44,763 bases of DNA, from assembly GCA_964482665.1 (NCBI GenBank), contig CAYZYW010000003.1, positions 1 through 44,763 on the forward strand. The letters are read 5' to 3'. The DNA is from Candidatus Woesearchaeota archaeon (GTDB taxonomy: Archaea; Nanobdellota; Nanobdellia; Pacearchaeales; GW2011-AR1). Positions 22,962-30,055 of this stretch are shown here, one piece after another (positions within the stretch are counted from its first letter, which is position 1; each line of letters starts with the position of its first letter). Below the pieces are notes generated by a model. The model ran no database searches, was not told the DNA's origin, and worked only from the letters and a program-made list of their open reading frames with translations. Made by a program: the position numbers and the translations under genes.

Positions 22962-23413
22962 TTTTTTAATATGACATTTAAACTAGATCAATATCTAATA
23001 AATAAACTTCATCTTCAAAGGTTTCAATCTTCACGAAGAATTGTTCCTTATTGTGAAGATGAAAAAAAGTCCAAGTGAAATACTTAACATTAATCCTTCG
23101 GAAATTCTCTCTATGAAAAGCTATGCAGTTTGTGCCTATGCTTTAGAGGGATGTAAAACTTCCGACGATCTTGCCAAAAGAGGCATTGTTGTATATTGGT
23201 AATTTATTAATGATAATCTTTAAATTGTTTTTTCTTTATCAATCCGCTTCATATATGAATCGCAACCTACCTTCTTATTTGAGAACTCCCTGTCTGAATA
23301 AATAAAAAGTGGAGTCATCAAAATAGATGCACTTATAATTTTTAATGAATATTTACTTATCTAAATAAATTCCTCATCAAAACTCTTATAAATCCCTTTG
23401 GTGAATATTAAAT

Positions 23414-24847
23414 ATGGACTTTAGAAAAATATTCGATTATATTCCGGAGGTGGTGAAACCTGCAGAAAAAAATGTTGATTTTAAAACTAAACTTAAATGG
23501 ACTATCATTATTTTAGTTGCATTTTTTATATTATCTAATATTTCTCTTTTTGGACTTAGTGCAAATGCCATGGAGCGATTCGAGTATCTTGCAATAATTC
23601 TTGGTACAGATTTTGGAAGCATTATTTCATTGGGTATTGGACCAATTGTAATGGCTTCAATTATTTTACAGTTACTAATGGGTTCGCAAATTATTAATAT
23701 AGATACTTCAACAGCTGAGGGTAAAAAGTTTTATCAAGGTGTTCAAAAATTATTAGTTTTGTTTTTTATTGTTTTTGAGGCCGTCGTTTATGTTATGATG
23801 CAAGGCCTTCAGGCGATGCCTGGCTTTGCCAGTCTAGTTATTTTTCAGTTAATACTTGGTGGGTTAGCAATTTTTTATATGGATAAAGTTACAACAAATT
23901 GGGGATTTGGATCAGGTGTAAGTTTATTTATTGGTGCAGGTGTAAGTTTAAGATTATTCACAAGTGCATTTCAATTTGTAACAAATCAAGGTAAAAATTG
24001 CTTATTTGATTTTAAAGGAACTCCATGTTCGGGAAAGGTTTTGGTTTTGGTTCAATCTATAATTAATAAATATCCTACTGAGTTTATTTCAGCTCTTGCG
24101 GCTATTGTGGCGACAGTTGTTATTTTTATTGTTGTTGTATGGGCTCAATCATTAAAAGTTGAAATTCCGCTTTCTTTTGGACGAATTCGTGGCTATGCTA
24201 TGAAATGGCCATTATCATTTTTTTATGCCTCTGTTATTCCCGTTATTTTAACAGCTGCACTTATGGCAAATTTTCAATTATTTGGTGGATTAATTGAAAA
24301 TGCCGCTTCTCCATGTCTTGAGGGTGCATGCTCAGGTTTTGCGAGAATCGCTTCACATTTGGGATTTTTAGGACATTTTGTTAATGGACAAGCTGTTTCA
24401 GGTTTGTCATTTTGGATGGGCTCAAGTAATTTATTAGAGCTTTTTATTAGAGGTGGATTTATGTGGAAATATGCATTACAGGGTTTGACTCATATATTTT
24501 TCTTTATGTTGTTCTCAACTTTGTTTGCTGTGTTTTGGGTTAAGACGGCTGGAATGGATTCAAAGTCTCAGGCTCAAAAAATTGCAAGTTCAGGTTTGCA
24601 GGTTTCAGGGTTTAGACAGGATATTCGAATTTTAGAAAGTATACTTGATAGATATATTATGCCATTAACCGTTATGGGTGGCTTAGCGATTGGTTTACTA
24701 GCTTCATTAACAGATCTTTTAGGAGCATTAGTTTCAGGAACAGCAATCTTATTGGTAATTATGATTATGTTCCAGTTTTATCAGAACATTGCACAAAAAC
24801 ATATGACAGATATGAATCCAGCAATGAGAAAGTTTATGGGTGGATAG
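23414..24847 (+). CDS. secY: Preprotein translocase subunit SecY
   Basis: 477 aa, about 10 TM segments. IISLGIGPIVMASIILQLL (TM2 plug region). Sits downstream of L15. A TATA-like TTATAAAT lies at 23386-23393. Confidence 0.92.
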   Translation: MDFRKIFDYIPEVVKPAEKNVDFKTKLKWTIIILVAFFILSNISLFGLSANAMERFEYLAIILGTDFGSIISLGIGPIVMASIILQLLMGSQIINIDTSTAEGKKFYQGVQKLLVLFFIVFEAVVYVMMQGLQAMPGFASLVIFQLILGGLAIFYMDKVTTNWGFGSGVSLFIGAGVSLRLFTSAFQFVTNQGKNCLFDFKGTPCSGKVLVLVQSIINKYPTEFISALAAIVATVVIFIVVVWAQSLKVEIPLSFGRIRGYAMKWPLSFFYASVIPVILTAALMANFQLFGGLIENAASPCLEGACSGFARIASHLGFLGHFVNGQAVSGLSFWMGSSNLLELFIRGGFMWKYALQGLTHIFFFMLFSTLFAVFWVKTAGMDSKSQAQKIASSGLQVSGFRQDIRILESILDRYIMPLTVMGGLAIGLLASLTDLLGALVSGTAILLVIMIMFQFYQNIAQKHMTDMNPAMRKFMGG

Positions 24848-25930
24848 ATTTGAGAAGTTTTTGAATTGACATGAAATTGTTTCCAAGATTTACATAAGCA
24901 ATCCATCCTTGTAATATTTCTTTAAATTTTTCTTTAGATATCTTACCCTTATTAAATAATTCAATCTTTTTCCTAATGTTTCGTAAATTTCTTTTTCTCA
25001 ATAACCTTGAATAATAAAAATTTCTAAATCCGACAAAATCAACTCCTCGAGATAAATTCAATATCTTAGATTTGTCTGGATGAAGTTCAAGCCTTAATTT
25101 TTCTTTTAAAAAAATTTCAACTTGTTTTCTCCAAGTCTTAAGTTGTTTTTTTGAAGGATGTAATAAAACGAAATCATCAACATAGCGAATATAATATTTT
25201 GCTCTTAATTTATTTTTTATAAAATAATCTAATTCATTAAGATATATGTTTGCAAAAAATTGTGAAGTTAAATTTCCTAAAGGTAATCCTTTATTGTTAT
25301 CAAATCCCTGCTTACTTTTCAGGTTCGAGAGAGAGAGAGAGAGAGAGAGAGAGACGAATTACAAATATTCCCTATCGAGGATTTATTGTATCTCTCATTT
25401 TTTATTATAATTTTAATTAACTGTAACGTTTCTTGACACCTTATTTTTCTTTGTAACATCCTTAATAGAATTTTGTGGTCTATGTTTCGGAAATAATGTT
25501 TTACATCTGCCCTGAAACAATGCCCCGAAGAATGTAAATTCTTCGTAACTTTTAATTTGAATTTCTTAAGTCTTTGTAGTGCAAATAATGTTCCTTTGTG
25601 TTTTCTATTTGCACAATTATCACAAATAAATGTTTTATCAAAAATAGGTTCAATTATGTTACACAAGGCGTGATGAATAATTCTATCTCTAAAATCTGCT
25701 TTGGAAATTTTACGAGTCTTTGGGTCTCGTAAAATAAAAATTATCAAAGGCTTTGGTTTGTATGTTTGTTTTAATAATTCTTTCTGTAATTTGAAAAGAT
25801 TTTTTCGCGTATTTTTTTCAAATTCGATAACGTAGTTCTTTTTCGTTTTTCCTTTTCTTGCTTTAATCCAAGCTTTCGCTAAGTTATTCATTGCACATAT
25901 TTTAGGATAAAGATTTTTATGGGTTTTCAT
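24834..25930 (-). CDS. DGR reverse transcriptase, reading frame interrupted at a (TC)14 repeat
   Basis: N-terminal ORF 25930-25319 holds RT motifs 0-3 (NLAKAWIKARKGK, PKPLIIFILRDPKTRKISKADFRDRIIHHAL, CANRKHKGTLFAL, FRADVKHYFRNIDH). My translation of 25322-24834 in the -1 frame gives KGLPLGNLTSQFFANIYLNELD ([ILV]GxxxSQ, DGR-type motif 4), YIRYVDDFVLL (YxDD) and a thumb segment (GVDFVGFRN...LQGWIAYVN). The 3' end overlaps the secY stop by 14 nt. Confidence 0.8.
25327..25354. repeat. (GA)14 / (TC)14 dinucleotide microsatellite inside the RT gene
   Basis: Counted directly: 28 nt of perfect GA repeat on the plus strand. It encodes (SL)n in the RT frame and causes the frame break. Confidence 0.95.
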
Positions 25931-25954
25931 TTCAATGCTGTCCTGAAGATGGGC

Positions 25955-26036
25955 TATTCCAAGATTCGCGTTCCTATTGGAAGGATTCCTGTCACAATTC
26001 AGGTTCGCCCTACTCGAGTCAGCATTGAACCTCGCG
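25955..26036 (-). repeat. DGR template repeat (TR)
   Basis: 82 bp, non-coding, ending 24 nt upstream of the RT ATG. 70/82 identical to 26327-26408. All differences are at plus-strand T (minus-strand A) of this copy. Confidence 0.85.
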
Positions 26037-26279
26037 AATCAGATAGCCAATTTACCAATTCATAACGCAAAAGCGTTAACACCACAACTTCAATATTCAC
26101 CATAAGTTACTAATTGTTGTTGTTGAATTTAATGACTTGAAATAAATCTTAACAACGTGCTAGTAAATTGACGTGTAGTCCTTGTTTTATATTTCTTGTT
26201 CATGGAAATATAAAATTTCTCCAGGACAATGAATCAAATAAAAAATTGTTTAAAAATTTTGCGATGTCACTTCGCGACA

Positions 26280-26299
26280 AAAAAACAAATTTGTTTTTT
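26280..26299. repeat. Perfect 20-bp palindrome AAAAAACAAA|TTTGTTTTTT just 3' of the target-gene stop
   Basis: Read directly from the sequence. Flanked by TCGCGA at 26271-26276 and 26307-26312. It lies 4 nt downstream (minus sense) of the stop at 26303-26305. Confidence 0.8.
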
Positions 26300-26302
26300 A
26301 GA

Positions 26303-27180
26303 TTATTCGCGAACAATATAATCCCTTACCCCAAGATCCGCGTTCCTACCGGAAGGATACCAGTCACAACCCAGGTCCGCCCTACTCGAGTCAGCATCGA
26401 ACCACGCGCCACGTCCTGCTATTGGCGCCCAATAGTATAAATCTCCTTCTAGATCTTCTTTGTTCAGATTGTTGTTTGGAAACCCCTGTTCTGTTGGTGT
26501 ATCTATCCAGCTTTTTAATGAGATTCCCGGAGCTTTATTTTGTATTAATGTATTTTTTGTAATTTTTCTCTGCTTCCTGAAATCAGATTATCTTCAGAAT
26601 CAAGTTTAAAATCTCTTAAAACATATAAACCATCTTCTCTTTGCTCATAAAAATCTTCAGACCATTCAGCTCTCCAAGGAGATTTTACTCCGACAACATC
26701 AGAATAAATTGCTTCTATTTCTTTTATGTCCATTTTATGTCCTTGAGAATTATAAACTGATTCTCCGTTTAATCCACTATGGAGATATTTTAGAAATTTA
26801 TTCATCAAATTAACAAGTGGTGTTTTTCTTCCTCTTACGGAATTTAACTTTAAAGCGGTGTCTCGATTTATATTCCCAATAAAATATCTTTTCATTGAAT
26901 CACTTGAAGTATTCATAAAAGATTCTTCAAGACGTTTTCTTGCTTCTCTAATTCCATAATCTTTTTCAGAAACTCTTGCTGAATTAATATCCAAATCACC
27001 ATAACCTTGTGGTGTAATTTCTCCTGGCATAAAAATATATCCTTCTAAATCTTTTGGCTCTGTTGGAGTTTCAATTATTTGTTTAGATAAAATTGGGTTT
27101 GTTGGTGTTTCAATTACTTTGTAAACTTCTGGATTTAACATTCCTAAAGTTTGTTCGCTTACTTCGATTATCGGTGTCAT
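26303..27180 (-). CDS. DGR target protein, C-type-lectin/FGE-sulfatase-like fold with C-terminal VR; frame change between 26548 and 26587
   Basis: The 211-aa ORF (27180-26545) carries SPWRAEWSEDFY, like the GNVWEW..D.Y motif of FGE/CLec domains. The -1 frame is open from 26587 to the stop at 26303. It reads ...KSWIDTPTEQGFPNNNLNKEDLEGDLYYWAPIAGRGAWFDADSSRADLGCDWYPSGRNADLGVRDYIVRE* and contains the VR. It has no ATG of its own. Confidence 0.7.
26327..26408 (-). repeat. DGR variable repeat (VR)
   Basis: The 82-bp counterpart of the TR, in frame within the last ~35 codons of the target ORF. TR AAY/AGG codons appear here as GAT, GAC, GGT, TAT and TGG. Confidence 0.85.
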
Positions 27181-27291
27181 AGCTTATCTAGAAAAAAGTT
27201 CTTTATAAAACTTTCTATACTGTTACTTTTAAAGAAAGGCTACAGAACTAATAAAGTCAAAGTTTAAAAAAGATTTTTCATTATCTTATTT

Positions 27292-27690
27292 ATGAGTTTA
27301 GAAAGTTTAATGATCACATATCCGAAATTAAGTATTTCAATTGTTGCTCTTGCTGTTACTTTTGTTATGACATTGGTTACGAAAAAATTTACAGATCAAA
27401 AAAGACTAAAAGAATTAAAAAAAATTCAGAAAGCATGTCAGATTAAAATAAAAGATCATAAAGGTGATATGAAAAAACAAGGCGAGATTCAGAAAGAAAT
27501 GATGGCGTGTTCGATGGAAATGATGAAACATTCATTCAAACCTTTATTTATTACAATGATTCCTATCCTTTTCTTGTTCGCATGGATTAGAGGTGTTTAT
27601 ACCGAAGTTTTAACAAGTTGGATATGGTGGTATCTTGGTGCTGCAATTGCTTCAAGTATTGTTTTAAGAAAAGCTTTAGATGTTGCATAG
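27292..27690 (+). CDS. DUF106 family membrane protein (archaeal YidC/Oxa1/EMC3-like insertase)
   Basis: 132 aa. TM helix, then a K-rich coiled segment (KRLKELKKIQKACQ...MKKQGEIQKEMM), then two TM helices. This is the usual gene class downstream of secY-adk in archaea. Confidence 0.55.
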   Translation: MSLESLMITYPKLSISIVALAVTFVMTLVTKKFTDQKRLKELKKIQKACQIKIKDHKGDMKKQGEIQKEMMACSMEMMKHSFKPLFITMIPILFLFAWIRGVYTEVLTSWIWWYLGAAIASSIVLRKALDVA

Positions 27691-27724
27691 GAAACTTTAA
27701 AAATTAAATAATTCTCGGAATAAC

Positions 27725-28267
27725 ATGGAAAAAGATCAACAAGAAGTAATGTTTAAACTTCAGATGTTTGAACAACAGATTAAAGGATTACAACAACAAC
27801 TACAAGCAGTTAGTCAGGGAATTGTGGAGATGCAATCATTATGTCGTGGACTTGATTTAATAAATGGGTCTGAAGGTAAGGAAATTATGGCTCAGATTGG
27901 ACGAGGAATTTTTGTTAAAGCTAAGATTTTATCTGACAATTTGACGGTGGATATTGGTGAGGGTAATTTTGTGAAAAAAAATGTTTCTGAAACAAAGGCT
28001 ATGATTGATAAACAAATTTTAAAATTAGAAGATGTTAAAACTGAACTTGAGGAGAATATGGAAAAAGTTGGAGAAGCTTTAACTCAAACTATGCATGGTG
28101 CTCAACAAAATCAATCACATTGTGTATGTGGAGATAATGCTGAATGCCCTGGAGATTGTGGCGATAATTCCGAATGTGAAGATGAGTCCGTAAGGGAAAT
28201 CTTGTCGGAAAAAAGCTCAAGTAAGAGTAAAAAGCTGGATGAAATGTTTGAAGAAGATAAAGAGTAA
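27725..28267 (+). CDS. pfdA: Prefoldin alpha subunit with Cys-rich acidic C-terminal tail
   Basis: Coiled-coil / beta-hairpin / coiled-coil layout (QMFEQQIKGLQQQLQ...GRGIFVKAKI...VDIGEGNFVKKNVSETKAMIDKQILKLE). The tail reads HCVCGDNAECPGDCGDNSECEDES. Confidence 0.75.
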   Translation: MEKDQQEVMFKLQMFEQQIKGLQQQLQAVSQGIVEMQSLCRGLDLINGSEGKEIMAQIGRGIFVKAKILSDNLTVDIGEGNFVKKNVSETKAMIDKQILKLEDVKTELEENMEKVGEALTQTMHGAQQNQSHCVCGDNAECPGDCGDNSECEDESVREILSEKSSSKSKKLDEMFEEDKE

Positions 28268-29110
28268 TTATTGATTTTTTATAAGATTTAATTTTTTTAT
28301 AAAATCCTCATATTTCAAAACTCCCAAGCTACTTACAATTCCTTTAATATATTTTTTTGGAACAAATTCAAAAGCTGGATTTTTTATTTTAATATTTTTT
28401 GGAGCCTTATCCCAAACTTCGTTTAATTCTCTTTGCTCCATTGGTAAATCTTTTAATGTGAATTTCCATGAATCAGCAACGACAAAAAAGGGAATTTTTT
28501 CTTGTTTAGCTAATTTTGCAATCGTCTCAGATCCTATTTTATTTATAATTCCTTTTTTTGTTAAAGCATCTGCTCCAATGAAAACCTTTGTAACTTTTTT
28601 CGTTCCCTGCTCTTTTGATAATGCTACGCCTATCGCAGAATCTACAAACATTGTAACTTTTATTTTTGCTTTTTTTAATTCCTTGGCTGTTTTATGTCCC
28701 TGCATCAATGGTCTTGTTTCAGTATTATAAACCTGAAATTTTTTCTTTTGTTTTTTTGAATAAATCAAGGCATTAATAACATTTGTTGAATGACAATGTG
28801 TAAAAATTATATCATTATTTTTTATTAAGTTTGACGTAAATTTATTTATCTTATTTTGTGCAAAATCGAAATGTCCCAAAATTTCCTTATGTGAATGAAA
28901 TTTTGCTTTTTCTAAAACATTTTGCAACATTGGTTCAGTTGGACGAAGTGATAAAAGTTTTTTTCTAGACTTATCCGACGGAAATAAAAAATAAGCATTC
29001 AGCGCTGCTCTTGCAACATTTCTCGCACCCTGTATTTTAATTGACTTTATATCTCTACAAATTTTATTAAATTTATTTTTGTTTGAAAAATATTTTTTTA
29101 ATCGCTTCAT
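28268..29110 (-). CDS. eIF-2B alpha/beta/delta family protein (ribose-1,5-bisphosphate isomerase-like)
   Basis: 280 aa. IQGARNVARAA, FTHCHSTNV, TETRPLMQGHKTAKEL, IGADALTKKGIINKIGSETIAKLAK..PFFVVADSWKF match the IF-2B family core. Confidence 0.65.
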   Translation of the reverse strand: MKRLKKYFSNKNKFNKICRDIKSIKIQGARNVARAALNAYFLFPSDKSRKKLLSLRPTEPMLQNVLEKAKFHSHKEILGHFDFAQNKINKFTSNLIKNNDIIFTHCHSTNVINALIYSKKQKKKFQVYNTETRPLMQGHKTAKELKKAKIKVTMFVDSAIGVALSKEQGTKKVTKVFIGADALTKKGIINKIGSETIAKLAKQEKIPFFVVADSWKFTLKDLPMEQRELNEVWDKAPKNIKIKNPAFEFVPKKYIKGIVSSLGVLKYEDFIKKLNLIKNQ

Positions 29111-29194
29111 TTTATATGATAATTAAATAAAAATATTATATAAACATTATGAAATTGTAAGAAGATTTAAAAAATCATTTCTTTTTTGTAATAT

Positions 29195-30055
29195 ATGTTA
29201 GAATCAATTATTAATCCAAAAAATACAGAAAAAGGGGCGTGGAAAATGTTTTTTGTAGGACTTGTTTATGCATCCCTTTCTTTAATTTTGGTTCACTTTT
29301 TTTTCTCTGGAGATCCCGCATTGTCTAAGGCTTCTGGTATGCTTGTTGTTACATTTTGCATTATGTTTTCATTGCCATATATGTATTTTATAATAAAAAG
29401 AGAAGAAAAAGAAGATGAAACTATCGAGGGTTTTTTTGATGTATGGCAAGCTCACAAAGATGCACTTTATGCTTTCATGTGGTTATTTTTAGGATTTATT
29501 ATTGCATTTTCATTTTGGCATATTGTATTGCAAGATCCAAATTTATTAAATTTTCAAATTCAAACATATTGTCAAATTAATGATCCCAGCAATGTTGCAA
29601 ATTGTGTAAGTGAATATACAATTGGAGGAGGGGTGGATGTTACAGGTGCAGCAACAAAGCAAATGAGATTTTTATCTATTTTAGAAAATAATGTTTATGT
29701 TATGATATTTACATTAATTTTTTCATTAATATTTGGAGCGGGTGCTATTTTTATTTTAATTTGGAATGCGAGTGTCATTGCTGCAGCCATAGGGATTTTT
29801 ACAAAATATCAAATAGCCGAGATACCTTTGGGAATTGGGAGATATATGATTCATGGATTTCCTGAAATTGCAGCGTATTTTGTTACAGCTTTAGCTGGCG
29901 GAATTTTTGGAATTGGTGCCATTAGAAATGGTATTAAAAATCGTAAATTTTTGAGAGTTATGGAAAATACAGTTATTCTTTTATTTATTTCCATATTGAT
30001 ATTAGTCCTTGCTGCCGTTATAGAGGTTTATATTACGCCTGTCCTATTCGGATAG
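29195..30055 (+). CDS. SpoIIM-like (DUF95) integral membrane protein
   Basis: 286 aa, about 6 TM segments. MIHGFPEIAAYFVTALAG resembles the family's HG..E motif. Confidence 0.45.
   Translation: MLESIINPKNTEKGAWKMFFVGLVYASLSLILVHFFFSGDPALSKASGMLVVTFCIMFSLPYMYFIIKREEKEDETIEGFFDVWQAHKDALYAFMWLFLGFIIAFSFWHIVLQDPNLLNFQIQTYCQINDPSNVANCVSEYTIGGGVDVTGAATKQMRFLSILENNVYVMIFTLIFSLIFGAGAIFILIWNASVIAAAIGIFTKYQIAEIPLGIGRYMIHGFPEIAAYFVTALAGGIFGIGAIRNGIKNRKFLRVMENTVILLFISILILVLAAVIEVYITPVLFG

Follow-up and report, generated by a model that had tools for sequence, protein, structure and literature searches.

A dinucleotide microsatellite sets the reading frame of an archaeal diversity-generating retroelement reverse transcriptase and may act as a phase-variation switch

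Introduction

Simple sequence repeat (SSR) contingency loci are known in Neisseria, Haemophilus and Campylobacter, with poly-G, dinucleotide and tetranucleotide tracts, and programmed transcriptional slippage or frameshifting is known from dnaX, insertion sequence (IS) elements and Shigella mxiE. The subject of this work is a diversity-generating retroelement (DGR) whose reverse transcriptase (RT) gene is divided by a perfect (TC)14 microsatellite. It is located in a 44,763-nt stretch of DNA from Candidatus Woesearchaeota archaeon (contig CAYZYW010000003.1 of assembly GCA_964482665.1), which was analysed at its full length and is referred to as the window. To our knowledge, little has been reported on how DGR activity is regulated. 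In surveys, DGRs are usually classed as active or inactive with no mechanism given.

DGRs of Nanoarchaeota/DPANN were reported by Paul et al. 2015 (PMC4372165), and a set from the candidate phyla radiation (CPR) and DPANN by Wu et al. 2018 (PMC5758913). The DGR of the window resembles the known DPANN elements in its chromosomal RT of the same family (best matches up to 64% identity), in a template repeat (TR) adjoining the RT and in a variable repeat (VR) with adenine-specific differences at the 3' end of a small target gene. It differs from the DGRs of these two papers, which do not mention repeats or frameshifts in the RT, in having a microsatellite that splits the RT and a frameshift in the target gene.

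The same loop of related RT genes bears the same kind of tract, and alleles with the two RT parts in frame (ON) and out of frame (OFF) both exist. Our data suggest that the tract is probably a hypermutable repeat whose length, through slipped-strand phase variation of the DNA, turns RT translation ON or OFF. An earlier note on this DNA had proposed a slipped-strand ON/OFF switch and knew of no description of one in DGRs. The proposal has gained strong comparative support from about 90 related RTs with varying tract length and intact halves, and a search of open-access text, including two DGR surveys and the first archaeal DGR paper, gave no prior description and nothing linking DGR RTs to SSRs, phase variation or frameshifts.

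Results

The tract and the split RT gene

The tract occupies positions 25327-25354 and is a perfect 28-nt repeat, (GA)14 on the + strand and (TC)14 on the − strand, which encodes the RT. It lies between RT motif 3 (25516-25475, − strand) and motif 4 (25280-25260, − strand) and would encode (SL)n. It is the sole dinucleotide run of more than 4 units within the window, whose GC content is 30%; in 100 dinucleotide-preserving shuffles, 0.00 TC runs of 12 nt are expected. A perfect microsatellite is indeed atypical for this AT-rich genome, as the earlier note had remarked. The N-terminal RT open reading frame (ORF; 25319..25930, − strand, 203 aa) contains motifs 1-3 and covers positions 1-186 of the family hidden Markov model (HMM). 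It reads ...NICNSSLSLSLSLSRT* and terminates at the TGA at 25321-25319, just past the tract. The C-terminal part (24834..25325, − strand, HMM positions 179-340) is in a different frame and consists of 163 codons and a stop at 24834. This second frame (NLKSKQGFDNNKGLPLGNLTSQ...) runs from 25325 and holds NLKSKQGFDNNKGLPLGNLTSQFFAN...YVDD...; it comprises motif 4 with GNLTSQ, the YVDD sequence (25184-25173, − strand) and the thumb. The coordinates agree with the earlier note, which had placed the tract between motifs 3 and 4 of a DGR RT with this TGA behind it and had followed the motif 4-7/thumb part in another frame down to 24834.

Setting the tract in silico to 13 or 16 TC units gives an uninterrupted ORF of 364 or 366 aa, in line with the single ORF of about 365 codons predicted for these lengths; 12, 14 and 15 units do not. 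In the window RT, a tract of 28 nt is OFF and one of 26 or 32 nt is ON. The repaired RT matches Pfam RVT_1 (E=5e-21). Neither (TC)n nor (GA)n holds a stop codon in any frame and the 2-nt unit is not a multiple of 3, so that tract length alone decides whether both RT parts are translated jointly. As in a contingency gene, the repeat of the window is perfect, lies within an ORF, has a unit that is indivisible by 3 and is far above chance length.

A look-up with the window SecY and the RT N-terminal ORF gave only one further contig, Ga0208904_1002672 (11 kb) of the Joint Genome Institute (JGI). It is 100% identical over window positions 23221-29930, including the 14 units and the VR. A chimeric join at the tract, one of the explanations offered by the earlier note, was rejected, as the two flanks are contiguous halves of one RT and colinear with intact homologs.

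Tracts in related RT genes

Metagenomes were scanned for motif 4 in reverse complement, followed after 15-45 nt by seven [G/T][A/C] units; this pattern proved specific in the window and in the loci previously collected. Comparison of related RTs for the presence and length of the tract had been suggested in the earlier note. Besides the window, the tract is present in 90 metagenome loci with DPANN-type RT genes, in each case located in the same loop, 13-29 nt long and composed of perfect (GA)n or (TC)n. A one-off inactivating insertion, which the note had also considered, is excluded by this recurrence. No other dinucleotide tract of at least 6 units and no G or C run of at least 8 was found in 450,610 nt of the tract-bearing loci. 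Viral contigs scanned for (GA)7 or (TC)7 upstream of motif 4 gave none.

The frame state was scored in the 78 distinct alleles that have both motif 3 and motif 4 on the contig. The two motifs are in frame in 13/78 and out of frame in 65/78; with a unit of 2 nt, a change by a single unit is therefore enough to bring any OFF allele to an ON length. OFF loci are divided about equally between the two frames (33 vs 35). Random length would put 1/3 of the alleles in the ON state, more than the fraction of 0.167 observed (binomial p=0.0016). Forty-five OFF genes are fully covered and away from contig ends, and in 40 of these both halves are complete when compared with the family HMM (N-terminal about 1-185, C-terminal about 180-340). 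The exceptions are L135/L144, L120, L143 and L155. In L135/L144, about 150 nt past the motif-4 Pro codon, a TAG stands in frame in place of an invariant Trp (W266 in the window RT). In OFF-OFF pairs, the median ratio of non-synonymous to synonymous substitution (dN/dS) is 0.14 for the N-terminal block and 0.10 for the C-terminal block, with dS near saturation. As judged from these ratios, both RT halves are under purifying selection. ON and OFF alleles with the remainder of the gene intact, a mark of contingency genes, are thus both present in the family.

The window and the metagenome loci make up 87 distinct alleles. In 77 of these the purine strand is coding; in the other 10, the window among them, it is the pyrimidine strand. 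A frequent reading in TC-type alleles is CG(TC)nGA, the reverse complement of the common (GA)nCG flank. The orientation bias and the mirrored flanks hint at small inversions or independent origins. In L111 (around 5285), (CT)12 is followed by an intact RT C-terminal half; there is no motif 3 upstream and the site is not at a contig end. L111 may represent a rearrangement or deletion at the tract.

Length variation between near-identical alleles

The tract differs in length between alleles that are otherwise nearly identical. L090 and L149 show 0 mismatches over 1004 nt, the sole difference being one unit (2 nt), and are both OFF in different frames. L113 and L155 (845 nt, 1 mismatch) differ by 4 nt in the tract and are both OFF, as are L135 and L144 (99.3% identity over 3.5 kb, 4 nt) and L107 and L160 (99.66% over 11.8 kb, 2 nt). 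Two pairs combine an OFF allele, named first, with an ON allele: L092 and L171, otherwise identical within the RT, differ by 8 nt, and L095 and L140 (97.7% over 2.3 kb) by 2 nt. L162 with (TC)12 and L163 with (TC)13 come from one sample (Ga0209542), have the same (TC)n-type RT and are identical at 102/102 nt downstream of the tract, where L162 ends. L162 is OFF; L163 starts 2 nt upstream of the tract and would be ON given an upstream sequence like that of L162. L103 starts exactly at the tract and is one unit off its twin L147 from a sister sample. L162/L163 and L103/L147 are the closest substitute for read-level heterogeneity, and the tract of L162/L163 is oriented as in the window. Within the family, repeat number thus varies among near-identical alleles, as in contingency genes, in six allele groups, in L107/L160 and in L162/L163.

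These pairs also bear on whether the split RT is an artefact, either a chimeric join or a miscounted repeat in a gene that truly has 13 or 16 units. The earlier note had allowed for such an assembly or consensus error. Dinucleotide tracts are prone to PCR stutter, and several contigs break at or near tracts. However, reads and assembly k-mers are much longer than 28 nt, the 14 units are found in two contigs that agree, and the flanks belong to one RT. Out-of-frame lengths occur in 65 alleles from many independent projects and assemblers, making OFF the commonest state in the family, and the sole difference between L090 and L149 in 1 kb is exactly one unit. We regard an artefact as highly improbable.

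The loop between motifs 3 and 4

A search with the RT gave 6,328 homologs at E<=1e-10, the named ones being Nanoarchaeota/Pacearchaeota RTs. The best 120 homologs are all intact proteins of 324-468 aa, with identity up to 64%. Among these 120, the stretch from motif 3 to motif 4 ranges from 39 to 78 residues, and the loop contains (ER)2-4 in about 18, G3-G5 in about 12 and ALSLS in one. In the AlphaFold2 model of the repaired RT, residues 179-214, which include (SL)n, have a predicted local distance difference test (pLDDT) score <50 and no secondary structure. The tract sits in a disordered, insertion-tolerant surface loop. The tract as an intron or bypassed segment was considered and dropped: ON alleles translate (ER)n or (SL)n, matching the variable loop of the homologs, and no conserved flanking structure was seen.

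Comparison with GTDB covered 80 loci from species representatives (459 kb). The loop of L002 has a perfect 27-nt (AG)13.5 tract, in frame, that encodes IERERERERD, and G7-G11 runs are found in the loop of L005, L006, L040, L042, L048 and L070. Of the strong SSRs in the 459 kb, 7/24 are within the loop of about 100 nt.

The tracts of the species representatives (the G7-G11 homopolymers and an (AG)10 before motif 3 in L038) are all in frame. N gaps adjoin the poly-G run of the loop in scaffolds L005 and L048. L009 and L010 have a G9 run some 154 nt past motif 4, where L012 also bears a tract. A C13 run (L044, 119-131) and a G10 run (L051, 2972-2981) lie within about 30 nt upstream of the aligned RT start; both may be SSRs that belong to the 5' region of either the RT or the DGR RNA.

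RNA-level expression of OFF alleles

The dominance of OFF alleles (65/78), with both halves intact and constrained, would also be accounted for if these alleles were read through at the RNA level, with the polymerase slipping by one or more GA/UC units (a ribosome shift being less likely), a little in-frame mRNA and low-level RT as the outcome, and the DNA length tuning the dose of RT instead of acting as a switch. Harm from full expression would explain why fewer DNA alleles than the neutral 1/3 are in frame, and 2-nt transcription deletions are significantly enriched at dinucleotide repeats in Escherichia coli, although they did not rise with repeat number (PMC5574713). In 69 distinct alleles, the 45 nt 3' of the tract (about 25282-25326, − strand, in the window) are more structured than control segments, with a mean minimum free energy (MFE) of -7.3 vs -2.5 to -3.9 kcal/mol and a mean z of -0.9 vs -0.1 to -0.4. 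The 45 nt upstream of the tract, by contrast, give no signal for a nascent-RNA hairpin (z -0.27). The required direction of the shift is not conserved, and DNA-level length changes, which are directly observed, suffice to produce ON and OFF alleles. We judge RNA-level read-through to be quite unlikely. Polymerase slippage on (GA)n that expresses out-of-frame alleles could represent an undescribed, dinucleotide-based form of archaeal recoding.

Classical -1/+1 programmed ribosomal frameshifting was rejected as unlikely, since the OFF alleles need either direction about equally (33 vs 35). No X_XXY_YYZ slippery heptamer was found at the tract, which is a dinucleotide repeat of variable length. 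The segment 3' of the tract is GC-richer than the control segments of the same genes, and many (GA)n alleles run on into CGCG.

DGR components and neighbourhood

The TR (78 nt, 25959..26036, − strand) is located immediately upstream of the RT start and the VR (26331..26408, − strand) at the 3' end of the target gene. The two repeats are 87% identical, and each of the 10 mismatches coincides with a TR adenine (− strand). The RT-16 RNA motif (Rfam RF03019) has a full-length match at 26038..26206 (− strand), directly adjoining the TR on its 5' side, with a covariance-model score of 93.3 bits against a gathering threshold of 50 (E=9.5e-14). The adenine-specific mismatches and the RT-16 RNA establish that the DGR of the window is genuine. 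The RT-16 RNA is presumably part of the DGR RNA. In the alignment of RT homologs G218-N-L-T-S-Q223 is invariant, and GNLTSQ in motif 4, which we take to be the mark of DGR RTs, together with the RVT_1 match places the protein among the DGR-type RTs. By its position, the RT-16 motif is a candidate structured RNA that falls within the transcript of a DPANN DGR.

No ORF able to encode Avd is present between RT, TR and target in the window ORF list. The setting is chromosomal: SecY lies immediately upstream, a series of densely spaced + strand ORFs is also found upstream, and the downstream genes are EMC3-like, prefoldin and IF-2B. The host is AT-rich, and the named RT homologs are from Nanoarchaeota, Pacearchaeota and Woesearchaeota, i.e. 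DPANN archaea. A promoter and terminator scan round the DGR gave fewer matches than shuffled sequences; the consensus used is bacterial, which makes the scan uninformative here.

Diversification of the VR in tract-bearing lineages

The alleles of L095/L140 and those of L135/L144 have identical TRs, and what distinguishes them is concentrated in the VR. The VR-TR mismatches in these alleles are at TR adenines in 12/12, 16/16, 10/12 and 12/12 cases. Differences that cluster in this way, with unchanged templates, indicate recent diversification in tract-bearing lineages. The VR differences as proof of current RT activity were rejected, since the RT of L135/L144 has a nonsense codon. The VR differences of this pair reflect either an RT acting in trans, or VR variants older than the nonsense mutation, or read-through of the TAG.

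The target gene and decay

The N-terminal ORF of the target gene (26545..27180, − strand) has 211 aa and stops at 26545. The VR-bearing C-terminal part (26303..26587, − strand), which ends ...GAWFDADSSRADLGCDWYPSGRNADLGVRDYIVRE*, has no start codon and is in the -1 frame with respect to the upstream ORF; the VR occupies the last ~35 codons of the frame ending at 26303. The frameshift is located near A5/A6 runs at about 26550-26580, and Ga0208904_1002672 shows the same sequence there. In the relatives L001, L098, L122 and L083 the N- and C-terminal target parts are in one frame.

The target frameshift raises the possibility that the tract is a non-adaptive hazard. An ancestral GAGAGA (ER) seed in a tolerant loop would expand in repair-poor DPANN genomes and frameshift a dispensable gene, and the DGR of the window would then be a pseudogenising element, with a toggle that has no regulatory role. 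Besides the target gene, the VR that is identical in both available window contigs, the OFF majority, the extra nonsense codon in L135/L144 and the short (ER)2-4 seeds that are common in intact homologs all fit such decay. Against it, 40/45 OFF genes have no other lesion over about 340 codons in AT-rich genomes, and ON and OFF alleles coexist among near-identical sequences, including those of one sample if the upstream sequence of L163 is that of L162. Furthermore, strong SSRs are absent from the 450 kb of neighbouring DNA, where many genes are presumably dispensable, and the loop tracts recur in two orientations and as poly-G. We regard decay as an unlikely explanation of the tracts.

Discussion

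We favour slipped-strand phase variation. Slipped-strand mispairing in replication would add or remove tract units, and changes in unit number would switch RT synthesis heritably ON or OFF, and with it the adenine-directed retrohoming that mutates the VR. The window allele with 14 units would be OFF and one unit from ON (13 units). The predominance of the OFF state would fit hypermutation that is on in a minority of cells, as in bet-hedging, or a costly ON state. Reversibility within lineages and the consequence for retrohoming are what we infer from the comparison of alleles. The adaptive value of the switch seems to us about evenly balanced between present and absent. More broadly, and more tentatively, DPANN archaea may gate targeted hypermutation by a second layer of hypermutation; selection would maintain dinucleotide and probably poly-G tracts in a tolerant loop of the DGR RT, with most cells OFF and a minority heritably ON.

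Several points weigh against phase variation. An ON fraction below the neutral 1/3 needs an extra assumption, either that ON is costly or that out-of-frame alleles are otherwise expressed. The whole evidence consists of assembled consensus sequences, not of reads, RNA or protein. Tract-length polymorphism was not seen in the window's own population, which is represented by two identical contigs only, possibly from the same reads. The frameshift in the target gene means that the DGR of the window may be decaying rather than awaiting switch-on. With dS about 1, the dN/dS values reflect long-term history, and the OFF state is not datable from them. Finally, the nonsense codon in an RT that stands next to diverged VRs (L135/L144) means that VR divergence is no proof of an active adjacent RT.

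If the tract does act as a switch, a frame-setting microsatellite in the RT gene would be a simple, heritable and reversible control of DGR activity and would explain many inactive-looking DGRs. It would be among the clearest cases of SSR phase variation in Archaea, a mutable switch over a mutator, and thereby a contingency locus governing evolvability itself. What would be new is an archaeal microsatellite switch, widespread and mostly OFF, that acts on the engine of a targeted mutator. As tract-bearing RTs appear as two fragments, standard gene calling and protein-based DGR surveys would miss or fragment most of them. The idea is testable with existing metagenomic reads, in which tract-length spectra could be compared with VR diversity.

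Two kinds of known system are close to the tract-bearing RT genes. As in the recoding of dnaX, IS elements and mxiE, a repetitive sequence joins two conserved halves of an ORF that differ in frame. The known cases use homopolymers or slippery heptamers with a fixed direction, whereas the tract is a dinucleotide repeat of variable length that requires both directions about equally. The likeness to bacterial contingency loci extends further: a perfect repeat within the ORF, a unit that is not a multiple of three, a unit number that varies among near-identical alleles, ON and OFF alleles with the rest of the gene intact, and strong over-representation of the repeat relative to the rest of the genome. 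The two differ in that OFF alleles of the proposed switch predominate more than chance would give and in that it belongs to a DPANN archaeon that is uncultivated, not to a host-adapted bacterium. The gene that would be switched encodes a hypermutation RT, not a surface antigen or a restriction-modification enzyme, and one hypermutable site would here control another mutator.

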